Source: a virus
Taxonomy: Duplodnaviria; Caudoviricetes
IMG/VR virus record: IMGVR_UViG_3300036719_000099
Coordinates: 1 to 28,917 of that record
Reading direction: 5' to 3' (one strand)
DNA length: 28,917 nt
Shown: piece after piece, positions 1 through 18,196 of the stretch
How positions within the stretch are numbered: position 1 is the stretch's first letter
How the letters are laid out: the number at the start of each line of letters is the position of its first letter
Made by a program: the position numbers and the translations under genes
Notes under the pieces: model-generated
Told to the model about the DNA's origin: nothing
The model's input: only the letters and a program-made list of their open reading frames with translations
Databases searched by the model: none

Positions 1-821
1 GTGGTATTGCAGTAGTGCTTGAAAATCACCTCGCTGGTGTTGCCGGCCCATGCAGCCACCTGTGGCACTGGGATTCCGGCTTCAATCCAGCGGCTGATTG
101 CCGTATGCCTGCAGTCGTACGGACGGTACAGGTGGGAGATCAACCCAGCGCCATGCAACGGCTGCAGCTTTTTACGGAAGTAACTCTGAAACGCCACTCG
201 ATTCCACGGGAAGATGCACTCGTTTTCCTGTGGCAGTTGCTCAAGGATGGCTCGGCATTTGCTGTTCAACGGCACCCATCGCTTCTTGTTGGTTTTAGTG
301 CTGTCTTTATAGCCGTGTGTAAGTGTCCAGTTGCTATGTACAAGGATCTTGTTTTCCTTGATGTCTGACCATCTCAAAGCTCGCACCTCACCAGTACGCA
401 TTGCAGTTTGCAGCATGAACTCGGTGTACCACGACCAGTTGACATCTTGATAGCTGCATTTTGCAGCAAGTGCAGCAAGCACTATGCCGACTTCATTGCG
501 TGGTATTACGACAATCTCCTCGTCTTTTTGCGGCGCCTTCGGCATTTTGAAGCTGGCCAGCGGGTTGCGCTCTAGGTAGCCAACATCCTCTTGCGCCGCC
601 CACTTGTACATGCTTTTGGTGTACATCGCCACGCGCCGTGACGACAGCACAGGCTTTTCGCCTAGGACCCAGATCATCACCTGTCTTGCGTGGCTGAGGT
701 CCTGCACAGGACATCGAATCAACCACTTGCGAACCTGCCGGTAGTCAGAGGTAAGGCTTGTTGGGCACAAGGCAATAGAACGCTCAGCGAGGAAGGCGTC
801 CCAGAGTTCTACAAGTGTCAT
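1..821 (-). CDS. Tyrosine recombinase (Xer/Int family, short form with no evident arm-binding domain); 3' end truncated by the window edge
   Basis: Not in the ORF track because there is no stop in the window. Manual translation from ATG 821: MTLVELWDAFLAERSIALCPTSLTSDY...NPLASFKMPK...FMLQTAMRTGEVRALRWSDI...STKTNKKRWVPL...LYRPYDCRHTAISRWIEAGIPVPQVAAWAGNTSEVIFKHYCNT. Catalytic R (TAMRTGE), K (STKT), YxxR(H) box II and nucleophile Y (KHY, nt 12-14) are present; the frame is open for 273 codons. Confidence 0.93.
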   Translation of the reverse strand, partial: MTLVELWDAFLAERSIALCPTSLTSDYRQVRKWLIRCPVQDLSHARQVMIWVLGEKPVLSSRRVAMYTKSMYKWAAQEDVGYLERNPLASFKMPKAPQKDEEIVVIPRNEVGIVLAALAAKCSYQDVNWSWYTEFMLQTAMRTGEVRALRWSDIKENKILVHSNWTLTHGYKDSTKTNKKRWVPLNSKCRAILEQLPQENECIFPWNRVAFQSYFRKKLQPLHGAGLISHLYRPYDCRHTAISRWIEAGIPVPQVAAWAGNTSEVIFKHYCNT

Positions 822-827
822 GTACCA

Positions 828-833
828 ACCCTA
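828..833 (-). promoter_or_regulatory. Putative -10 element (TAGGGT) 6 nt upstream of the recombinase ATG
   Basis: TAGGGT-tggtac-ATG; the same TAnnnT-N6/7-ATG geometry is seen at three other genes in the window. Confidence 0.45.
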
Positions 834-834
834 C

Positions 835-862
835 AAGAAAAGCCCGCCGGTTACAGCGGGCT
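835..862 (-). terminator. Rho-independent terminator after the tail fibre gene
   Basis: Minus strand AGCCCGCTG-TAAC-CGGCGGGCT followed by TTTCTT: a GC-rich hairpin plus U-tract about 30 nt after the fibre stop codon. Confidence 0.8.
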
Positions 863-871
863 CACGCTCAG

Positions 872-886
872 TATTGAAGGTGACTA
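872..886. repeat. Putative recombination site 6 (TAT-tgaaggtga-CTA, one mismatch), just downstream of the fibre stop codon
   Basis: GTAT TGAAGGTGA CTAC on +; same arm and spacer geometry as the intragenic sites. Confidence 0.45.
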
Positions 887-892
887 CTGGCT

Positions 893-2899
893 CTAGCAAG
901 CCATCAGCACGCAGGGCACGCAGTAGCTACCGTCCTCGTAGGTGCAGCTCACGTTGGTGCTGGTGACCTTGGCCACAGTCTTGCTGCGAATGATGTCGTC
1001 GTCCTGGGGTTTGGCAGTGCCATCACCAGCGGACATGAGTAGATCGCCACGCTGAACTGTGACGCCTTCGGCAATGCGGATGATCATGTCACCCGTCATT
1101 GCACAGTAGAAATCTTTGGTGTGAACTTCATCGTCATTGTCCCACCCCTGAAACACACCAGCAACATTGAAATCACCTTCAACATCGCTCACTTTCATGC
1201 GGTTGAGTTGTTCATTTGTTTGTTCGCCCCAATCGCACATTTCATCCAAGTTGCTCAGCACAGTGCCGCGTAGGATTTCAACACGATCTCCGTTCCCAGG
1301 GAGCTGTGACCAACGGCTTAGGTGAGCACCGTTCAGAGAGACAGTGTTACCTGAAACAGAAATGCTGCCTTCAATGGCTGTGTCTTGGTAAAACTCAAGC
1401 AGGTTGCCGTCATCGGTAGTCCTGTTGACATGCAATGGCGTACCAGACGCACGTTGGAAAGTCCCAGCTCCAACGACAGTAAGCCGTTCGGCGCTGGTAA
1501 TGATTGCGCCTGTTGTTCTATTGATAAATACGCCACCTGCATTATCAATCCTCATCCGCTCCGTAGGACCAGCCGCGCCATCTGCCGTAGTGGAGAACAC
1601 TAACCTGCCCGGCATGTCATCAGCGCCGGGGGTGCCGTCTACTTGTGCTGTAATTGATGCGCTACTGACAAAGTTTGTATTATCGGCACCTTGGAAAAAG
1701 ATCGAGCCCAGCGAATCACCATCAGCAACGATGTCAGGAGTTGCATCGCCTACTGTTGTGGAGCGTGATTTAGCGAGGTAAATTCCGCTTTGTCCGGTAT
1801 CGTTTGAGTTCCTAAGAATTGACAATGCTGAGTTGTTAAGAGAGGTGCCTTCTATTTGGAAGGGGCTGGTTCTTGCGCCGCTTGTGAAGTTTGCACGCGC
1901 ACTAGACGTGCCAACTAAGAGGCGACCCGAGGCATCAAATCGCGCTTTTTCACTGCCACCTGTGACAAACGCAAGATTATCCGTGGCAGGCCGATACAAA
2001 CCGGCGCTGAACGCTACGGCAGAACTGTTCGCGGTGAAGGCAATTCCTCCGGCTGTACTTGAACAAGCAATGGTTCCATTGACATCCAATGTAGTAGCCG
2101 GACTCGTAGTGCCAATCCCTACGCGGCCTGCGGAGGTGATCCGCATCCGCTCGATTCCGCTAGCGCTATCGGCATTGGTGCGAAAAGTTAATGCCGTTGC
2201 ATTCTGAGCTGTAGTTTCATTTACGCCATAAATGCCTGCGGCTCTGGTTGCGCCTCCAGTGTTTGGGGAAAATGTAATACCTATAGCCGTATTAGCTCCT
2301 GAGTTTTGGTTGTGCAGTAGCACACCAACCGCATCAACACCGGCAGCATCTTTCCGTATCTCTAAAAGTTCCTGAGGACTAGAAGTCCCCAGACCTAAGA
2401 GGCCTGCGGGCGTGATACGCATCCGCTCAACGGCATTAACGCCAAAAACAAGAGACTTGTTTTCGTAGTTGTATAGGTATCCAAAGTCGTTATCAATTCC
2501 TACAAAAAGCCCATCTGTTGCGGTAGAACCGTACGCAGAAGTGGAAATCTGTACGCCCGCCAAGCCATCAGTTGCTTTTTGGATGTGAAACTGTGTGACT
2601 GGACTGGCCGTACCCACCCCAATATTTCCATTTGCACTGACAAACAACCGCCCCGTGCCATTAGTTGAGATGGCTAGTTGGTCAGCGCCAGGGCTGTAGA
2701 TGCCGGTGTTTTCGTCGCCTTCGATGGCAATGCTTGGTGCAGCAGCAGTACCAAGCGGCACGCCACGGAACAACTCCTCAATGGTGATCCGCTTGTTCTT
2801 ACTGGCAGCAGCAACCTCGCTGATGTCAACGATGGGCAGGTAGTCACCAGCCGCTGGTGCAGTCAGTGCTGTCAGATCCGAAATCTTACGGTCAGCCAT
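893..2899 (-). CDS. Modular tail fibre / receptor-binding protein with an N-terminal 'KISxL' domain, ERMRI..G..GIGT..P repeats and a probable C-terminal intramolecular chaperone domain
   Basis: 668 aa ORF with RBS AAAGGA at 2911-2916. N-terminus MADRKISDLTALTAPAAGDYLPIVD...NKRIT; five RL/RMRI-x3-G-x2-(I/L/V)G(T) repeats typical of phage fibres; C-terminal GDLLMSAGDGTAKPQDD region resembles G2-type autocleaving chaperone domains (recognition only). Confidence 0.85.
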   Translation of the reverse strand: MADRKISDLTALTAPAAGDYLPIVDISEVAAASKNKRITIEELFRGVPLGTAAAPSIAIEGDENTGIYSPGADQLAISTNGTGRLFVSANGNIGVGTASPVTQFHIQKATDGLAGVQISTSAYGSTATDGLFVGIDNDFGYLYNYENKSLVFGVNAVERMRITPAGLLGLGTSSPQELLEIRKDAAGVDAVGVLLHNQNSGANTAIGITFSPNTGGATRAAGIYGVNETTAQNATALTFRTNADSASGIERMRITSAGRVGIGTTSPATTLDVNGTIACSSTAGGIAFTANSSAVAFSAGLYRPATDNLAFVTGGSEKARFDASGRLLVGTSSARANFTSGARTSPFQIEGTSLNNSALSILRNSNDTGQSGIYLAKSRSTTVGDATPDIVADGDSLGSIFFQGADNTNFVSSASITAQVDGTPGADDMPGRLVFSTTADGAAGPTERMRIDNAGGVFINRTTGAIITSAERLTVVGAGTFQRASGTPLHVNRTTDDGNLLEFYQDTAIEGSISVSGNTVSLNGAHLSRWSQLPGNGDRVEILRGTVLSNLDEMCDWGEQTNEQLNRMKVSDVEGDFNVAGVFQGWDNDDEVHTKDFYCAMTGDMIIRIAEGVTVQRGDLLMSAGDGTAKPQDDDIIRSKTVAKVTSTNVSCTYEDGSYCVPCVLMAC
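1588..1602. repeat. Putative recombination site 5 (TAG-tggagaaca-CTA)
   Basis: Exact inverted arms TAGT/ACTA around 7-bp core GGAGAAC; encodes L-V-F-S-T-T using a TTA codon. Confidence 0.6.
1903..1917. repeat. Putative recombination site 4 (TAG-acgtgccaa-CTA)
   Basis: Exact TAG-N9-CTA with core CGTGCCA; encodes L-V-G-T-S-S using a TTA codon. Confidence 0.6.
2107..2121. repeat. Putative recombination site 3 (TAG-tgccaatcc-CTA)
   Basis: GTAG-N9-CTAC with core GCCAATC; encodes V-G-I-G-T-T using a GTA codon. Confidence 0.6.
2383..2397. repeat. Putative recombination site 2 (AAG-tccccagac-CTA, one mismatch)
   Basis: Core CCCCAGA; encodes L-G-L-G-T-S using a TTA codon, at the position equivalent to site 3 in the protein repeat. 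Confidence 0.5.
2662..2676. repeat. Putative recombination site 1 (TAG-ttgagatgg-CTA)
   Basis: Exact TAG-N9-CTA with core TGAGATG; encodes L-A-I-S-T-N using a CTA codon, at the end of the N-terminal anchor region. Confidence 0.6.
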
Positions 2900-3110: not shown

Positions 3111-4150
3111 CAGATGTAGACGATGCAGAGGCCAGCGCCGCCAGCACCACTGGCAACTGCTGTTTGATTAGAACCACCGCCGCCGCCGCCCGGTACGGAT
3201 GCAGCAGTGCCGGTGTTGGACGTGGCGCCATCACCACCGTTGAGGCTGTCGCCACCTGCGCGTTGGGTGGCAGAACCGCCAACAGAAGCAGCGCCACCAC
3301 CGCCGCCACCCCAGAAAGCAGCCGGGCCATTGCTTGTGCCGCTAGCGCCACCGGCACCACCGTAATCACCTGTATCCCCTGCATTGCCGCCGGTCAATAT
3401 AGAGCCGTGGCCAGCACCGCCTGTACTGCTAGATCCAGCAGCCAGGCTGCCGCCACCGCCGCCGCCAGTAGCAATAAGTGTGCCCCCCACATTGGTGCGG
3501 CTACCACCAGCGCCGCCGTAAGCAGTCATCAAGCTGCCGAAGCTGCTGGTGCCGCCGACGTTGCCATTGGCATCAGTGCCGGATGCAATGGCTGCACCAC
3601 CTGCGCCGATTGTGACCGCAGCAGAACCGGGCAAATCAGACAACTGGAATAACCGCTGCACGCAAGCACCGCCACCACCGCCACCACCGGCTGTTGCTCC
3701 GTATCGCGCACCACTGCCGCCGCCGCCCCATAGCGTGATCAGTGCAATGGTGCCGGCGGTGGGCTTTACCCATGTGCCGTTAGCAGTAAAAACTTCCTTA
3801 CTAGAGCCGGGCGGGATGGCGTTCCAGCTTGCGACAGTGCCGTTAGTGGTGAGGTACTTACCGCTTTGGCTGGTCTGCGACGGCAGCGTGCCCTCAAAGG
3901 TGATTGTATTACCAACAATCGTGGCGACCTTGATCCAGGCGTTGTTGTTGGAATTGCGCTTTCTCCAGACTGGGGAGGTGGATGTTGGATCGATTGTCGT
4001 TCCAAGGTCGATCCAATCCTGAAACGCCACCGTGCTTGATGGCTGAGGAACGCCGCTGCTGTTTGAAAACAGTGCGGCCAGGTTGTTGTTGATGTCAGCG
4101 CGGACCGTCGGGAATGTGTCGTTCTGAACGGTCTGGTCAGCTTGCGCCAT
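3107..4150 (-). CDS. Glycine-rich tail fibre / adhesin
   Basis: Start reassigned to ATG 4150 (TAATG overlap with the gpJ stop). N-terminal anchor MAQADQTVQNDTFPTVRADINNNLAAL, linker LPSQTSQSGKYLTTNGTVASW, then a Gly-rich domain from VFTANGTWVKP...WGGGGSG to GAGGAGLCIVYIW. Confidence 0.8.
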   Translation of the reverse strand: MAQADQTVQNDTFPTVRADINNNLAALFSNSSGVPQPSSTVAFQDWIDLGTTIDPTSTSPVWRKRNSNNNAWIKVATIVGNTITFEGTLPSQTSQSGKYLTTNGTVASWNAIPPGSSKEVFTANGTWVKPTAGTIALITLWGGGGSGARYGATAGGGGGGGACVQRLFQLSDLPGSAAVTIGAGGAAIASGTDANGNVGGTSSFGSLMTAYGGAGGSRTNVGGTLIATGGGGGGSLAAGSSSTGGAGHGSILTGGNAGDTGDYGGAGGASGTSNGPAAFWGGGGGGAASVGGSATQRAGGDSLNGGDGATSNTGTAASVPGGGGGGSNQTAVASGAGGAGLCIVYIW

Positions 4151-7100
4151 TAGACGATCTCTCTGCCGTAGCCAGTAGCAGTGTAATCGCAACTGCGGGT
4201 GACGCCTGCATTGGCACTGTTGTAGAAGTTTACAGTGAAGCCGGTGCGGCTGGTAGAGGTGACCGTGTAGTAGTCACCAGTTGCCATGTTCGACGGGCTG
4301 ATCACGATGTTCGGTGTCTGGTAAAACGCCTGCGCAAACGTGACCGTGTAGGTGTTGGCGCCAGTGCGGTTGCCAGATTCAACTCGCTGCTGCAGTTCAG
4401 CCGTTGCACCTAGGTCTGAGATCGCCAAGCCGATTAGGTTGCTTTGGGTGATGCCAATCACCCGCACCTGGATGGCGCGTGCCCGGACCACGGCATTGAC
4501 AAACTCGTTCCATGGTCCCCACGTTGGCGTGCCGGCTGGGTTGTCGTTAGTTGTGCGGACATAGGTAATGCAGTTGGTTTGGTCAAGGTCACTACCGTCG
4601 AAGTTGCCGGGTTGGTCGTCAAAAAAGCTATCCACCGTGCCAGTACCTGTGCCAGGGCCTGTTGCCGTGAAAATAAGGCCCACGGTATTGCTGTCTGCGC
4701 CAATGGCAAGAAAATCTGTTGTACCGATGGAAACAATTTTATACCTTTTGCCTGCGACAATTCCAGTCACGGACAATGCCACCCCGACGCTATCAAAGTT
4801 GATTGATGTGCTGACCGGATAGCTAATGATCCGGCGGCGAAGGTTGATGTCATAAACCTGCGTCAGGTCCAGCGTGTCCTTGTAGACATAGGTACCAGTC
4901 AGCGCAGTCGCTGGGTTCAAATACAGCGCAACCTTGCCAGCGTCATACACGAAGTTGGTTTTGGTGCCATCAAACTTGGGCACCAGGTTTTGCTCTTCCC
5001 AGACCTTTACGCTTAGGCGTGGCTGCGGCGTGGGCAATGCTGCATGGATGCCGACCGGCACCAGCGACCGCACGCCGGACTGATCACGGAAGGCGACGAA
5101 ATAAGTGCCGGCCAGCAACGGCACCTGCTTTTGGGTTTGGTTGCCAGCCGCTGCCTGCACGATGGCATTACTGGTTGACCACTCCGCTGCTGGCATGTCA
5201 CGCGGGTCATGGCGAATCAGCACTTCACCGCCAATCAGCACATCGAGGTCGGTCGCTAGATCCCACTGGATAATGGCGGTGCTTTCGTTGATGGGCACCA
5301 AGCTGACGCCTGTCGGGTTGGCAGGTGGTGCGCCAACGCCCGTCACCGAGAACATCATCTCTGCCGGTGCGCTGCTAATCACCTGCGTGGAGCTGATTGC
5401 ATACACCTCCACTTGATAATTGCCGGTTGTGACGTCCTCGATTTCGTACAGCGGGCCGTATTGGCGCACCTCGGTCCAGTTGCCAAACTCTGCCCGCCAC
5501 CGAATTTTGTATTCATTGACGCCACGGACACCCTTCCATGTGAGTGCCAACTTGGTGGTAACCCGACCATTGAGCGGATACAGAATCTCGGTGCCGGTCA
5601 AGTCCTGCGGTGTTTCAGGTGGCACGTTTAGGTTGGTAATGTCGCGGGCTTCAAGTGGTGCGCCGCGCTCCACATAGTCGTATTTGCTGCTGTTGTAGCT
5701 GACGGCTGTGATCGAATAATTGATGCCCTCTTCTTCTTGGATGCCCAGCACCTTCCATTGCGTCGGTTGGATGTCGCTGGTTTCAACCATCCACACACCA
5801 CCATTTTGTGGCGCCATGCTGAAAGGCGGCGTGACTGTGTACACACCAGCGGTCAAGTCTGTGATGGTGCGCGATTCAACGATGCCATCGTCTAGCACCA
5901 CGCTCAGGGTGCCGGTGCTGGGCAGATCGGTTGCATTGTCAACCGTGACGGTGCTTGCGGTTCCGCTACTGATGCGGCCAGCGCGGCGAGCGCCAGACTT
6001 AACAGGGTCGGCAATGTTGATGACAGCACCGGGACGAACGATGATGCCGTTCTCCAGGCTGGTGGTAAAGCTGCATACTTCTGTCTCGTAGCGTTCGGAG
6101 TAAAGAATCCACTCGCCCACGCGATGCGCTTGTGACCGGCTGGTGGTGGCAAATGCCGTGACCTCTTTAGTCACTACGCCATAACGGGCGATGCCTTCAG
6201 GATCTTCGACTACTTCCCGATCAATGTCGCCCAGCTCTAGGTTGAGCCAGCCAACAACAACAACAGTTGAGCGGGTCTTTAGGCTGCTGGTTTCGTAGCT
6301 AAAGCCGTCTTCGCTGACATTGGCAAGACTGAACAGCGCAACCGGATCTGATGGCCGGTCCTGCATCATGCTCAACGATCCAGCCGCCCAGTACGGCATG
6401 GCCCGGAAAATTGAACACATGTCATTGATTAACCTATAAGCTTCTTCTTGGGTTTGGATGTTGACGTTGCAGCTAAACCGTGGCTCGCTAATTGGATCAT
6501 TTAGGCCAGTCGATACCAGTTCAGCGCAATACTTACTAGCTTGAAAAAATGCCCACTTGTCCAATGTGTTGGCTTGGATGTGATCACCCAGTCCATAGCG
6601 TTTTGATACCAAAATGTCCCAAAGAATCCAAGCGGGGTCGCTGGTCCATGCAGCAGCGCCGAATGTTCCATTCCAAATACCGGAATAGGTGAGCCTGCCG
6701 GTTTCTAGGTCAACGGTTGCATTGCTCGGAATAGCAACCTTGATGCCACGAATTTTGTAGGCGCGTTGCGGGATGTTGCTGAACTGCTCAGCATCAATCC
6801 GTGTGGCAACGTAGGCAGTGTTTGGGTACTTCAGCTTTTTATAAATTAGCTCGGTGTAGCTAGACCACGAGAAAGTATTGGTCTCCTTAATGCTGGTCGG
6901 TTCTGCTGATGTGCGGCTAACGCGGATGTCAACCGGAAACGTATCATTAAGTTCTATATTTCCGTTTGTGGTTAAAGAAGAGCTAGCTACATAAGAAAAA
7001 GAAGTTAGGCTAATTACTGTGGCAACAGTGTACGTGCTGCTAGCGGCTGAACCAGATAGGATATTTGCGTAGAAAGCTGTGCCGACTGAAAGATTGTGGG

Positions 7101-7791
7101 GAGTAGATGTTGTTACGGTTACGGTAAAATTAGTTTGGCTGTAACTTCCGCTGATAACGCCATTAACGGTATCCAAAGTGACTATATAATCGCGCTGATA
7201 CAGATCAGAAGTGCGGCCTGAAATGGTGTCATTGATGACCGTGGCGTAGCTACCGCCGAAATAACGAACTGCAATTGCTAGCGACAATGACGTGCCAACG
7301 ATGTCGCCGTTGTCAAGTACCTTTTGCAGCAACGGAACGCTAATGGTTAACCGTACAGCATTGACGTTGGTGTCAATGATGGTCTTTACAACAGGCGTTG
7401 CGAGCACCACGTCTTGGCCAACTGAAATCTCTTCCTCGATGGCATCAAACCCCGGCACATAGGCCTGGCTTTGCGTGCCAAACTTGGTCACGACGGTGAC
7501 GTTTTGAAAGTTAAAGTCGGATTCCTGCGGCAGTGTGTTGTCGGCAGTGGCATTAAGCAGCCGCGTCTTGTTGAAGTAAATATCCTTCATCGACGCATTC
7601 ATGTATTGCGTCGTGCCTTGCGTCAATCCCAAACGTGATGGCGTGGCAAATCCTTCGATTTCACCTTCGCTAAGGATTTCAACAATCTTGGCGTAAGCCG
7701 TTGAATCAAGGTTGTCTTTGGCTTCTGTGGATTTACGAAAAGCGCCGCCGCCTTTACCCTTACCACCACCACCAGCACCGTAGATGCTCAT
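4150..7791 (-). CDS. Tail tip / host-specificity protein, lambda gpJ-like
   Basis: 1213 aa; motifs ILSEGEIEG, YPNTAYVA, IRGIKVAIPSN, WTSDPAWILWD, EPRFSCN, TSRSQAHRVGEW; FN3-like domains; follows gpI. Confidence 0.93.
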   Translation of the reverse strand: MSIYGAGGGGKGKGGGAFRKSTEAKDNLDSTAYAKIVEILSEGEIEGFATPSRLGLTQGTTQYMNASMKDIYFNKTRLLNATADNTLPQESDFNFQNVTVVTKFGTQSQAYVPGFDAIEEEISVGQDVVLATPVVKTIIDTNVNAVRLTISVPLLQKVLDNGDIVGTSLSLAIAVRYFGGSYATVINDTISGRTSDLYQRDYIVTLDTVNGVISGSYSQTNFTVTVTTSTPHNLSVGTAFYANILSGSAASSTYTVATVISLTSFSYVASSSLTTNGNIELNDTFPVDIRVSRTSAEPTSIKETNTFSWSSYTELIYKKLKYPNTAYVATRIDAEQFSNIPQRAYKIRGIKVAIPSNATVDLETGRLTYSGIWNGTFGAAAWTSDPAWILWDILVSKRYGLGDHIQANTLDKWAFFQASKYCAELVSTGLNDPISEPRFSCNVNIQTQEEAYRLINDMCSIFRAMPYWAAGSLSMMQDRPSDPVALFSLANVSEDGFSYETSSLKTRSTVVVVGWLNLELGDIDREVVEDPEGIARYGVVTKEVTAFATTSRSQAHRVGEWILYSERYETEVCSFTTSLENGIIVRPGAVINIADPVKSGARRAGRISSGTASTVTVDNATDLPSTGTLSVVLDDGIVESRTITDLTAGVYTVTPPFSMAPQNGGVWMVETSDIQPTQWKVLGIQEEEGINYSITAVSYNSSKYDYVERGAPLEARDITNLNVPPETPQDLTGTEILYPLNGRVTTKLALTWKGVRGVNEYKIRWRAEFGNWTEVRQYGPLYEIEDVTTGNYQVEVYAISSTQVISSAPAEMMFSVTGVGAPPANPTGVSLVPINESTAIIQWDLATDLDVLIGGEVLIRHDPRDMPAAEWSTSNAIVQAAAGNQTQKQVPLLAGTYFVAFRDQSGVRSLVPVGIHAALPTPQPRLSVKVWEEQNLVPKFDGTKTNFVYDAGKVALYLNPATALTGTYVYKDTLDLTQVYDINLRRRIISYPVSTSINFDSVGVALSVTGIVAGKRYKIVSIGTTDFLAIGADSNTVGLIFTATGPGTGTGTVDSFFDDQPGNFDGSDLDQTNCITYVRTTNDNPAGTPTWGPWNEFVNAVVRARAIQVRVIGITQSNLIGLAISDLGATAELQQRVESGNRTGANTYTVTFAQAFYQTPNIVISPSNMATGDYYTVTSTSRTGFTVNFYNSANAGVTRSCDYTATGYGREIV

Positions 7792-15742: not shown

Positions 15743-17008
15743 CTAGGCAAAAACCAGCTTGAATTCGTCGTTGCCGTTGGTCGATGGCGTTGCCACATAC
15801 GGGATGGAAAGGCCTTGGATGCTCTCTGCGTCTTCATAGTCAGGATCCACCAAGTCAATTCGGCTGGACAGCAGCGCCACCAGATTTCCAGCAGTCTTTC
15901 CATGGATGAAGGACAAATCACCTGCAGCGGGGTCGGTTGGATCTAGGTAAATACGCTCAGAATCTTCGTAAAGCAAATCGAAAGAATCCTCGGTCAATAA
16001 GGCGTCAACAGGGTCCATCTCGCCGCCCAGCGCTGCAGCGAAAAAATCCTTCCCACTGACCCCAGCCAAGACTGGCGCCTCTATTTCAACGCTGCCATTC
16101 ACGTCACGACCCGTGATGAATACCTCCTCATGGCAATTGAGCAGATCACGAAAAATCAGTTCGTTGCCCAATTCCATGACGACTGATCGAAGACAGCCAC
16201 GGAATCCAAGCAGGGCAAAAGCACCTGTGTTGCCAGCCTTGAAAATACTTGGCGGCCCCTGATTGGCATATGTCACCGCCGGCAACGCAGTATCCGTTGG
16301 AGGGTTGTAAATGCCGTTGAAAACAAACTCAATGGCCGGTATCGAGCCCAAGTCCGCAACTACGGCACAGGTGCCCCTGCATCCGGTAATACGATGAAGC
16401 GTTCCATCAACATTGTAATAAATAGTTGTTGACTGTGGATTGTCGCTAATAGGTTCGTAGATAGTGGAAACATCAATGCTGTAAACACTTGTACTGTCGT
16501 AAGTTGTATTGTTGTTCAAGGGTCGAATTGATGCAACCTTACTGGCGCCGACATAATCAATAATCAGCCCAAGTGTTCCTTGCCCCAATCCGCCAGTCAC
16601 TCGAATAATTCGGCCAACGTAAACACGCTCAACCGAGCTAGCACTGGCATCAAGCGTGATTGCATTGACTCCACCCCCAGCCGCAGTGCCTGCAACCGGG
16701 CCGCTTGTCACTGTTTCGCTCAGCGAACAGGCCTTCAGCAGTGAGCTGAATTGTGGTGTCACTCCGACTACGCCGCTGCCTGTCAGCTCAACACTCATTG
16801 ATACTTCGACACGAGTATTGGCCAGCAACTGCTCCGAAGCGCCGTAATACGGACGCACGGTCTCACGATCAACTACTTCGCTTTGCAGCGGAATAATTTC
16901 CAAGTCAAAAACGTGTATGGCATCAAAAGCTCCACTAGGAGCTGAATCAATGCCATACACGCCCTCAATTTTGGAAAGGATCAGTCGCTTCTTGGTAAGT
17001 TGCACCAT
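15743..17008 (-). CDS. Tail tube protein paralog 2 (minor/divergent copy with an acidic insertion)
   Basis: Colinear with 17033..18196 (LTKKRLIL, RPYYGASEQLLANTRVE, IFKAGNTGAF, GNDEFKLVFA) plus an insertion of about 30 aa. Confidence 0.85.
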   Translation of the reverse strand: MVQLTKKRLILSKIEGVYGIDSAPSGAFDAIHVFDLEIIPLQSEVVDRETVRPYYGASEQLLANTRVEVSMSVELTGSGVVGVTPQFSSLLKACSLSETVTSGPVAGTAAGGGVNAITLDASASSVERVYVGRIIRVTGGLGQGTLGLIIDYVGASKVASIRPLNNNTTYDSTSVYSIDVSTIYEPISDNPQSTTIYYNVDGTLHRITGCRGTCAVVADLGSIPAIEFVFNGIYNPPTDTALPAVTYANQGPPSIFKAGNTGAFALLGFRGCLRSVVMELGNELIFRDLLNCHEEVFITGRDVNGSVEIEAPVLAGVSGKDFFAAALGGEMDPVDALLTEDSFDLLYEDSERIYLDPTDPAAGDLSFIHGKTAGNLVALLSSRIDLVDPDYEDAESIQGLSIPYVATPSTNGNDEFKLVFA

Positions 17009-17032
17009 GATGGCGCTACCGCTGAAGCCACC

Positions 17033-18196
17033 CTAGGCGAAGACGAGCCTAAACTCGTCATTACCAGCCGTGCTCGGGATTGCCGTGTAAGGCAGCGACA
17101 GCATGTGAATGCCATCTTGATCCTGATAGCTGGGGTCACCGATGTCCACGCGGGTGGACTGCAACGCCACGATGTTGCCACCAGTGGTGCCATGGATGAA
17201 TGAAAGCTCACCCAGGGTGCCGTCAGTCAACGCAGCAGTGAAATAGTCCTTCTGCGCGATGGTCGGTGCCTCGATCACAACCGTGCCAGTGGTGGCGCGA
17301 TCAGTGATCAGCACTTCCTTGGTGCAGCCCACCAGCTCCCGATACACCGTGCTGTTGCCCAGGTCCATCGAAACAGACTGGAGGCAGCCGCTGTAATCCA
17401 GCAGGGTGAAGGCACCGCTGTTACCAGCCTTGAAGATCCGAGGCGTTGCCTGATCGGCGTAGGTGACGCTCGGCGCAGCAGTGTCGGTCGGAGCGTTGTA
17501 AACCCCGGTCATCGTGAAGTCGATGGTCGGGATTTCGCCAACAGCAGTGTTGATCGAGAACGTGCCACGGCAACCAGTGAGCTTGTGCAGCACACCGTCA
17601 ATGTTGTAGTGAAGCGTCACCGAACCAAACGTGGAACTCACCGGGGTGTAAACCACGTGAGCGTCAATGCTGTAAACGCTGGTGTTATTCAGGGTCACCG
17701 CAGCGCCAATGGAACGCAGCGTGGCGACCTTGGTCGAGCCAACGTAATCGGTGATCAAGAACACCGAGCCAACGCCAAGACCAGAAGTGATGCGAATCAC
17801 TTGGCCGTTGTAAAAGTCGTTGTTGGAGCTAGCGCCAGCAGCCAAGGTGATGCTGTTGGAGCCACCAGCAGTGGCAGTGCCGGTCACAGCAGGCGAAACA
17901 GTCGTCTCAGCCAAAGCACATGCCTTGAGCACCTTGCCAAAGCGTGGCGCGGTGCCAGCAGTGCCACTGCCAGCCAGTTCCACGCTGAAGGTGCATTCAA
18001 CGCGAGTGTTGGCGAGCAGTTGCTCGGATGCACCCAGATAGGGTCGCACCAGATCGCGGTTGACCACATCACTCTGCTGAGGAGTGATGTTCAGATCCCG
18101 CACCAAAATGGCATCAGCGCCATCGGGCGAAGGGTCAACCCCGTAGCTGGACTCCGTCTCCGCCAGAATCAGGCGTTTGCGTGTCAGAAGTGGCAT
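17033..18196 (-). CDS. Major tail tube protein (paralog 1)
   Basis: MPLLTRKRLILAETESSYGVDP...SVELAGSGTAGTAP...LHKLTGCRGT...GNDEFRLVFA; lies between the terminator protein and the chaperones. Confidence 0.88.
   Translation of the reverse strand: MPLLTRKRLILAETESSYGVDPSPDGADAILVRDLNITPQQSDVVNRDLVRPYLGASEQLLANTRVECTFSVELAGSGTAGTAPRFGKVLKACALAETTVSPAVTGTATAGGSNSITLAAGASSNNDFYNGQVIRITSGLGVGSVFLITDYVGSTKVATLRSIGAAVTLNNTSVYSIDAHVVYTPVSSTFGSVTLHYNIDGVLHKLTGCRGTFSINTAVGEIPTIDFTMTGVYNAPTDTAAPSVTYADQATPRIFKAGNSGAFTLLDYSGCLQSVSMDLGNSTVYRELVGCTKEVLITDRATTGTVVIEAPTIAQKDYFTAALTDGTLGELSFIHGTTGGNIVALQSTRVDIGDPSYQDQDGIHMLSLPYTAIPSTAGNDEFRLVFA

Follow-up and report, generated by a model that had tools for sequence, protein, structure and literature searches.

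Conserved TAG-N9-CTA sites as points of module exchange among cyanophages, and the arm-less tyrosine recombinase that adjoins them

The fibre and recombinase locus

The virus record IMGVR_UViG_3300036719_000099 (IMG/VR; Duplodnaviria, Caudoviricetes) is considered here over its positions 1 to 28,917, and this whole stretch of 28,917 nucleotides is referred to as the window. At its beginning, a modular tail-fibre gene that contains a series of short inverted-repeat sites (TAG-N9-CTA) adjoins the gene of a tyrosine recombinase. Sites of this kind are points where fibre modules and accessory genes were exchanged between unrelated cyanophages; they divide the fibre genes of many phages of freshwater and coastal cyanobacteria. 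According to Pfam and PHROG profile matches, the window holds the structural half of a lambda-like siphophage genome, with every gene on the minus strand. Its guanine plus cytosine content is just 54.5%, so the genome is less GC-rich than had been stated in the original prediction, which was made from the letters of this DNA alone. The host of the phage is probably a picocyanobacterium, because the only close cultured relative of its recombinase is that of Synechococcus phage S-LBS1. The features of the locus, some of them described with reference to the related loci L001, L002 and L080, are the following:

893..2899, minus strand: modular tail-fibre gene, 668 amino acids (aa), matching PHROG tail-fibre families 18345 and 9942
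2662..2676, minus strand: site of class A (LAISTN), exact, coding-strand core CATCTCA; left edge of the cassette replaced in L002
2383..2397, minus strand: site of class B (LGLGTS), right arm CTT, core TCTGGGG; both L001 and L080 have the exact form
2107..2121, minus strand: site of class C (VGIGTT), exact, core GATTGGC; 20-base-pair (bp) island identical to L001
1903..1917, minus strand: site of class D (LVGTSS), exact, core TGGCACG
1588..1602, minus strand: site of class E (LVFSTT), exact, core GTTCTCC; linkage falls across the site
872..886, minus strand: non-coding site of class G, 3' of the fibre stop codon, right arm ATA, core CACCTTC
832..863, minus strand: hairpin resembling an intrinsic terminator, located between site G and the start of the recombinase gene; stem at 863-840, followed by a T tail
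1..821, minus strand: arm-less tyrosine recombinase (PF00589), 273 of 282 aa in the window

The recombinase runs off the end of the window, and its full length of 282 aa is found in L001, which is 99% identical. The hairpin in front of it may keep its expression low; as a terminator, it is a consensus match only, three such matches being found against 2.9 expected in the scanned region. The fibre shows 31-47% identity, across large parts, to the fibres of cultured Synechococcus and Pelagibacter phages.

The four exact sites that the original prediction had placed at 1588, 1903, 2107 and 2662 were all recovered, with no other in the 28.9 kb, and so were its one-mismatch copies at 2383 and 872, the list of 7-bp cores, and the single codon phase with NTA and wCT codons at all five intragenic sites. 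The enrichment claimed for them has to be stated differently. The expectation of 0.3 matches had been calculated for a 1.1-kb stretch chosen post hoc, and over the whole window a count of four is not significant (shuffled sequences have a mean of 1.76 and reach at least four in 11 of 100 cases); nevertheless, synonymous-codon permutation of the fibre gene yields at least four exact sites in only 3 of 5000 trials. In a similar way, the choice of one-mismatch copies had omitted five others in the gene (at 1040, 1738, 1800, 1840 and 2284), but the classes that were kept are exact in L080.

Site classes and module exchange among cyanophages

In 78 viral recombinase loci, the density of exact sites is 1.62 per kb in the upstream open reading frame (ORF) and 0.18 per kb elsewhere. 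The same codon phase is used by 100 of the 116 exact sites in upstream ORFs, and in 15 the stop codon coincides with the site. Across 54 distinct fibre genes, the sites fall into classes with frozen middles and in the fixed order A-B-C-D-E, the commonest spelling of each class occurring 6, 13, 30, 29 and 34 times, respectively. The anatomy of a site is TAG-N-core7-N-CTA: the base next to each arm varies and the middle seven are constant and class-specific, which agrees with the cores proposed at the outset; the synonymous conservation that had been looked for is also present, the codons being frozen in homologues. A 7-bp overlap is typical of lambda-type recombinases, and the geometry of the sites recalls such an overlap.

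Sites are also found outside coding sequence. At least eight non-coding classes can be distinguished, located (i) at the fibre stop codon; (ii) between small accessory genes; and (iii) before the recombinase or the DUF7936 partner gene. Among 63 accessory ORFs, 34 end within 40 bases of a site. Class G is exact in L080, where no recombinase stands behind it, and is the closing site of many accessory arrays. When non-coding sites are selected by left arm and core alone, CTA lies at +12 in 69 of 183, and elsewhere at +11, +13 and +14 in none, at +15 in 18 and at +21 in 17.

The same distinction between DNA and peptide can be made within genes. A codon-blind search with the E peptide returned 130 contexts, 57 with both arms and 73 with free codons, and the inner codons of the 57 armed contexts are nearly invariant (GTG in 55, TTC in 56, TCC in 47). 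With the C peptide, both arms were present in 24 of 121 contexts, 17 of those 24 with the class core; the peptide VGIGT has two fixed core spellings. Furthermore, the system is not restricted to one fibre gene, as had been supposed: in an unrelated family of tail genes with DUF7483, SPRY and LamG (lectin) domains, both arms are present in 95 of 103 codon-blind matches, in a different frame. Genes of this second family contain 215 sites, compared with 46 on average and 61 at most over 30 codon permutations, and the peak is seen only at N9, other spacings giving 4-58 matches. Linkage at the second-family site is low overall and weighs neither way. Members of the family (L618:5926-8292, L655, L646 and relatives) have cores of their own, and two overlapping sites that share CTAG were observed among them. 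In L487, L506, L517, L527 and L532, tandem genes of 250-300 aa lie upstream of recombinase homologues of 63-82% identity, with exact sites at the gene junctions and recurring cores; these arrays are possibly a third site-bearing family.

In all, about 30 different cores carry the common arms. Identical cores are common to siphoviruses, 80-kb phages and T7-like podoviruses, among the latter S-CBP3, S-CBP4, WH11-B and DSL-LC07, and they also occur in S-LBS1 and S-H1. No exact site was found in S-CBP2 or in a Mediterranean fosmid phage. The fibre of S-CBP1 (L739) has lost all six intragenic sites and has retained the exact site at its stop codon. G010 (L614, L616), a complete 80-kb genome without recombinase, has three fibre-family genes with site E, two of them co-oriented and one inverted. 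Two kinds of match were discarded: L296, a 941-kb contig with a match to E and no fibre gene, was rejected as a chance match, and several DSPTN "motifs" proved to be the reverse strand of site D.

In comparison with L001, L002 and L080, the fibre of the window is a mosaic whose joints lie at or near the sites. Only the A-B cassette differs from L002: identity stops 22 bases beyond arm A, within a stretch also present in L001, and is regained one base ahead of arm B. L080, which has no recombinase between the fibre and the partner gene, is identical in A-B and B-C and different in C-D and E-G, identity stopping 4 bases after arm C and resuming 4 bases before arm D. With L001, the window shares D-E plus islands of 15-21 bases at B and C, and identity resumes inside core D and again one base before site G.

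Mosaic breakpoints had been predicted to coincide with the sites, and in larger samples both breakpoints and loss of linkage are found there. Over all classes, where a pair has only the downstream module in common (n = 31), mismatch is 0.31 at -5..-1 and does not exceed 0.03 once the arm is reached. In pairs that share only the upstream module (n = 57), mismatch is 0.02 far to the left, 0.04-0.12 in the last 30 bases, and about 0.25 to the right of the site. In a smaller breakpoint set, the interval -3..+8 takes in 7 of 17 left ends and the interval +14..+19 takes in 5 of 25 right ends, where 6% would be expected in either; most of the remaining ends lie in the conserved N-terminal part. An initial breakpoint tally, dominated by conserved boxes and with peaks at -42 and +54, was set aside.

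At site E, within an 86-bp homologous box, third-position linkage is 0.052 for positions on one side of the site and 0.004 for positions on opposite sides of it (n = 73), while in site-less E homologues (n = 54) the two values are 0.021 and 0.022; the ranges on E linkage were obtained by subsampling and do not represent confidence intervals. Linkage from one side to the other is close to zero at B, C, D and F. Lake assemblies show breaks at the sites and alternative inserts between identical site pairs, and, in a hand count, 15 of the 24 loose ends listed from them lie within 4 bases of a site edge; these metagenomic data are assembled contigs, which cannot phase cassettes onto one backbone. 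No excised circle was seen among the joints listed from those assemblies. Since most shared modules have their ends at sites, and since linkage is lost from one side of the core to the other, the arms must be a signal at the level of DNA and not an accident of spelling. Neither protein constraint nor homology accounts for common arms around some 30 unrelated cores. A minority of the exchanges are probably due to ordinary homologous recombination within the conserved boxes round the sites.

Elsewhere in the window, two tail-tube-like genes (PF18906; 421 and 387 aa) stand in tandem at 15743-18196. The tail tip protein J (4150-7791) has a 75-aa insertion relative to L001 (L001:239-3655), and no exact TAG-N9-CTA occurs in its gene.

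The recombinase, its probable link to the sites and rival explanations

The recombinase matches PF00589 (E 7e-14) and a PHROG integrase family and, by its catalytic domain, belongs to the tyrosine recombinases. Arg142, Arg238 and Tyr270 are retained in 57-58 of 58 full-length homologues and Lys172/176 is conserved; both catalytic His positions are invariantly replaced (YxxR and Asn261). With a ratio of non-synonymous to synonymous divergence (dN/dS) of 0.045 and a median pS of 0.84 (saturated synonymous sites) over these 58 sequences, the gene is subject to purifying selection, and it is intact. Among cultured phages, its only close relative is the "integrase" A12 of S-LBS1 (MG271909), at 88.6% identity. 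The nearest outside relatives are mostly of 350-400 aa and about 30% identical, with 70-100 more N-terminal residues; the phrog_1 profile match begins only at position 164, and the N-terminal arm-binding domain of lambda-type integrases is missing. A single-sequence search of PDB gave no match, and profile matches to XerA and XerD structures were weak.

The family is compact (17 representatives at E < 1e-30) and almost wholly viral: the nearest Atlas clusters are 97-100% viral, and the two GTDB matches lie in contigs of non-cyanobacterial metagenome-assembled genomes. The gene is found in genomes of 34-87 kb at 73-90% identity, as the sole PF00589 gene in 16 of 17 carriers; G054 has a second, longer tyrosine recombinase. 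A search for the loci of a 45% homologue (P0126) found none. Some homologues (L075, L520, L524, L487, L473) are shortened or broken by a stop codon or frameshift and, in consequence, the gene is lost at times. In L045-L066, a TTGACA box is often contiguous with, or overlapped by, the last site upstream of the recombinase, and a number of homologues, many in all, apparently start with a codon other than ATG, which suggests low or self-regulated expression. Neighbouring genes include, in L001 (7925-8599), an HNH-type endonuclease gene (by eye) between the recombinase and the DUF7936 gene, across which a contig in metagenome runs X1 and X4 joins; in L025, the accessory slot upstream of the recombinase holds a 349-aa ORF that is reverse transcriptase-like by eye.

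The reading that is preferred here, with a probability of roughly 0.55, is that this arm-less tyrosine recombinase would exchange cassettes between co-infecting phages in a core-matched manner and partly in trans. The sites are likely the recombination sites of the neighbouring enzyme, which would join only identical 7-base cores. With two genomes in one cell, (i) a co-integrate would be formed at one matching core class; and (ii) its resolution at the next matching core pair would leave one slot replaced in frame. Different cores within one genome would not react together, so that the resident gene would be spared deletion. The enzyme would also act in trans on co-infecting phages that lack its gene; modules with intact arms would spread because they are the mobile ones, and arms would thus persist in phages without the enzyme.

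The association of the gene with the sites is close. A site of a known class lies within 5 kb of 51 of the 52 homologues at 72% identity or more and of 25 of the 34 at 48-71%, the background being 0.56 per 10 kb, a comparison whose force is reduced by a partial circularity, since the list of known cores was drawn from the same loci. More distant homologues often adjoin the second gene family, in either orientation. Sites within one genome had been predicted to be mutually incompatible, and indeed no core is repeated in recombinase-bearing loci: 0 of 55 against 9 of 80 others with an equal mean number of sites (Fisher p = 0.011), 0 of 54 against 5 of 49 in a second count (p = 0.022), and 0 of 5 against 5 of 8 among loci with at least seven sites. 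This absence is what an enzyme that deletes direct repeats in cis would produce, and neither a host enzyme nor plain homology is expected to single out carriers; the deficit therefore tells for the recombinase. Per whole contig, site E is present in one copy in all 21 matching carriers and in two or more copies in 3 of 22 others, 7 of which were unchecked for recombinase, a count that overlaps with the repeated-core tests and is not independent of them.

A number of observations weigh against the recombinase as the agent. It is carried by about 5-25% of site-bearing phages: it occurs in 3 of 60 loci found independently of a recombinase query, and in 6 of 50 second-family contigs (50 of 120 loci examined), with 3 of 12 among near-complete ones. 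In 21 site-bearing contigs picked for its local absence it is nowhere else on the contig; of five site-bearing phages in culture, four are devoid of any PF00589 gene. The sites had been expected to decay in relatives without the gene and do not, most site-bearing phages being of this kind; either trans action or another enzyme must therefore be involved. Site integrity is modestly higher with the enzyme in cis, 74% (112 of 152 motifs) against 52-61% (104 of 182). Conserved arms of 3-6 bp are short for a tyrosine recombinase. In upstream-sharing pairs, divergence begins within the 30 bases before the core in about a fifth of cases, and three near-site right ends extend to +37..+50, i.e., 37-50 bases past the site. 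The repeated-core test is itself biased, as pattern searches favour repeat-bearing genes up to two-fold; moreover, the loci compared in it are not independent by descent, and a recombinase status of "not seen" includes fragmentary contigs.

The scarcity of the gene, missing from 75-95% of site-bearing phages, would suit true core-matched sites served by a tyrosine recombinase of the picocyanobacterial host, or by some other protein, with the phage gene as a passenger or booster. The intact sites of lytic podoviruses of estuarine and marine hosts point the same way, and S-LBS1-like integrases are reported, in the accessible text of the source, to be rare among the phages of such hosts (PMC6157547). 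By analogy with host XerCD and the pdif sites of plasmids, such an arrangement is conceivable but unlikely: a host enzyme would purge repeated cores everywhere, whereas their absence is limited to loci with the phage gene, and the conservation of that gene and its tie to the sites would be left unexplained. No close homologue was found in cyanobacterial genomes, host genomes not having been scanned for sites or for distant enzymes. Ordinary recombination by homology, or the annealing of strands, within short conserved boxes, with the palindrome as a frozen spelling or as the site of a protein other than a recombinase, could draw on the boxes of 15-100 bp of identity that enclose the sites, on the mismatch shoulder before the core and on the recombinase being mostly absent. 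It requires no common arms, yet some 30 unrelated cores have them, both outside genes and in two reading frames; the fall of linkage at the core occurs within an 86-bp box of continuous homology and has no counterpart in site-less homologues, and shared cassettes set in abruptly at their 5' edge. As the general explanation, it is rather improbable.

Matches to PF00589 and to a PHROG integrase family would also be shown by a lysogeny integrase, the annotation given to the gene in S-LBS1, or by a resolvase of genome dimers, in either case with a site of its own unrelated to those of the fibre. Lysogeny has been proposed for S-LBS1, and, in the accessible text of the same article, mitomycin C induction gave no evidence of its integration (PMC6157547). 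That reading is very improbable in view of the missing 70-100 N-terminal residues, the tail-region position, an identity of 73-90% kept across genomes of such different size, and the additional recombinase of G054. By eye, no conserved element other than the sites, att-like or otherwise, was seen beside the gene, and a GTDB search returned no cyanobacterial prophage match for the recombinase.

Related systems and implications

The closest parallel is offered by the pdif/xrs sites of Acinetobacter plasmids, on which XerCD acts. The following is taken from the accessible text of one article (PMC11705084). As here, many sites with different central regions are present per replicon; no excision occurs within a replicon, and co-integration takes place only between matching central regions. 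A two-step exchange has been proposed and the enzyme acts in trans (PMC11705084). The cyanophage sites likewise bound exchanged modules and are multiple, with different central regions. The pdif arms are dif-like (ATAA-central region-TTAT; PMC11705084) and are bound by host XerC/XerD, whereas the arms here are TAG and CTA round N-7-N. Unlike pdif, the present sites lie in frame within genes, in synonymous codons and in a fixed order, with a 7-bp core and short arms, and the candidate enzyme is a phage-borne single protein instead of the host XerCD. A dependence on matching cores would be indicated indirectly here by the frozen cores, by their constant order and by the lack of repeats in loci with the enzyme. 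By analogy, the system would function like pdif/xrs without belonging to it, given its different arms, the in-frame position of its sites and a candidate enzyme encoded by a virus.

Shufflons form a second group for comparison, in which Rin is placed together with the Rci, Min, Gin and Cin systems. In the Rin shufflon of bifidobacterial prophages, an arm-less tyrosine recombinase adjoins a receptor-binding gene and the sites lie in or just after the gene, as in the cyanophages; Rin is described, in the accessible text, as inverting silent cassettes in cis at identical repeats (PMC6109161). In contrast, the cores here differ and are co-oriented, no identical inverted sites flank silent cassettes, and the cassette pool is spread across other phages. 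No fibre homology was found downstream or on the opposite strand in recombinase loci, and the predicted lack of silent cassettes holds downstream of the fibre in L001.

In integrons, as here, a tyrosine recombinase gene stands at one end of a small-gene array, and many of these genes end at a site; integrons are characterised by an IntI with an extra helix and by attC hairpins of the bottom strand. In the cyanophages, cassettes do not enter at one fixed point, distinct cores give the slots their order and sites lie within coding sequence; by eye, neither an attC-like long hairpin nor a long inverted repeat was seen at the 15-bp sites. In T-even phages, recombination at conserved motifs in distal fibre and adhesin genes was reportedly described by Tetart in 1998, and, to our knowledge, the T-even and PeSL exchanges take place between homologous repeats and involve no enzyme of their own. 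Both resemble the present system in replacing variable segments or small genes at short stretches of conserved sequence; the unrelated junctions of the cyanophages, in contrast, have common palindromic arms at a fixed spacing. In homology boxes, crossovers would be spread over the box with no sequence common to unrelated boxes, which is not the pattern observed, apart from a minority shoulder. PeSL cassettes are known, from the accessible text of their description, as small genes exchanged at short conserved junctions (PMC2839356), and module shuffling has been reported in natural phage populations (PMC7468147, accessible text).

Integrase A12 of S-LBS1 (MG271909) stands in the same position as the recombinase of the window, next to a fibre gene in which sites C, D, E and F are present and which it follows; it has been presented as an integrase for lysogeny, the sites going unmentioned in the accessible text of that article (PMC6157547). 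No description of these sites was found in the literature covered, outside which most subscription journals fall.

On a wider scale, the odds are about even that the exchange is community-wide and address-coded, one minority-borne recombinase family serving as a shared good for some 30 orthogonal sites set in synonymous codons. Under that community-wide reading, receptor-binding modules, lectin domains and accessory genes would be swapped, with the same even odds, among siphoviruses, podoviruses and larger picocyanobacterial phages, and the system would be a natural in-frame form of heterospecific cassette exchange. Cultured phages exist both with the enzyme (S-LBS1) and without it (S-CBP4, WH11-B, DSL-LC07, S-H1). 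If true, very short arms, dozens of orthogonal cores and ORF-compatible sites would provide a tool for scarless domain swapping. The S-LBS1-type "integrase", so far regarded as an indicator of lysogeny among freshwater Synechococcus phages, would need to be re-interpreted. Finally, the movement of tail-fibre domains between phage families that otherwise share little would be explained, and the evolution of host range in these abundant cyanophages would be a programmed, testable reaction rather than a matter of chance homology.

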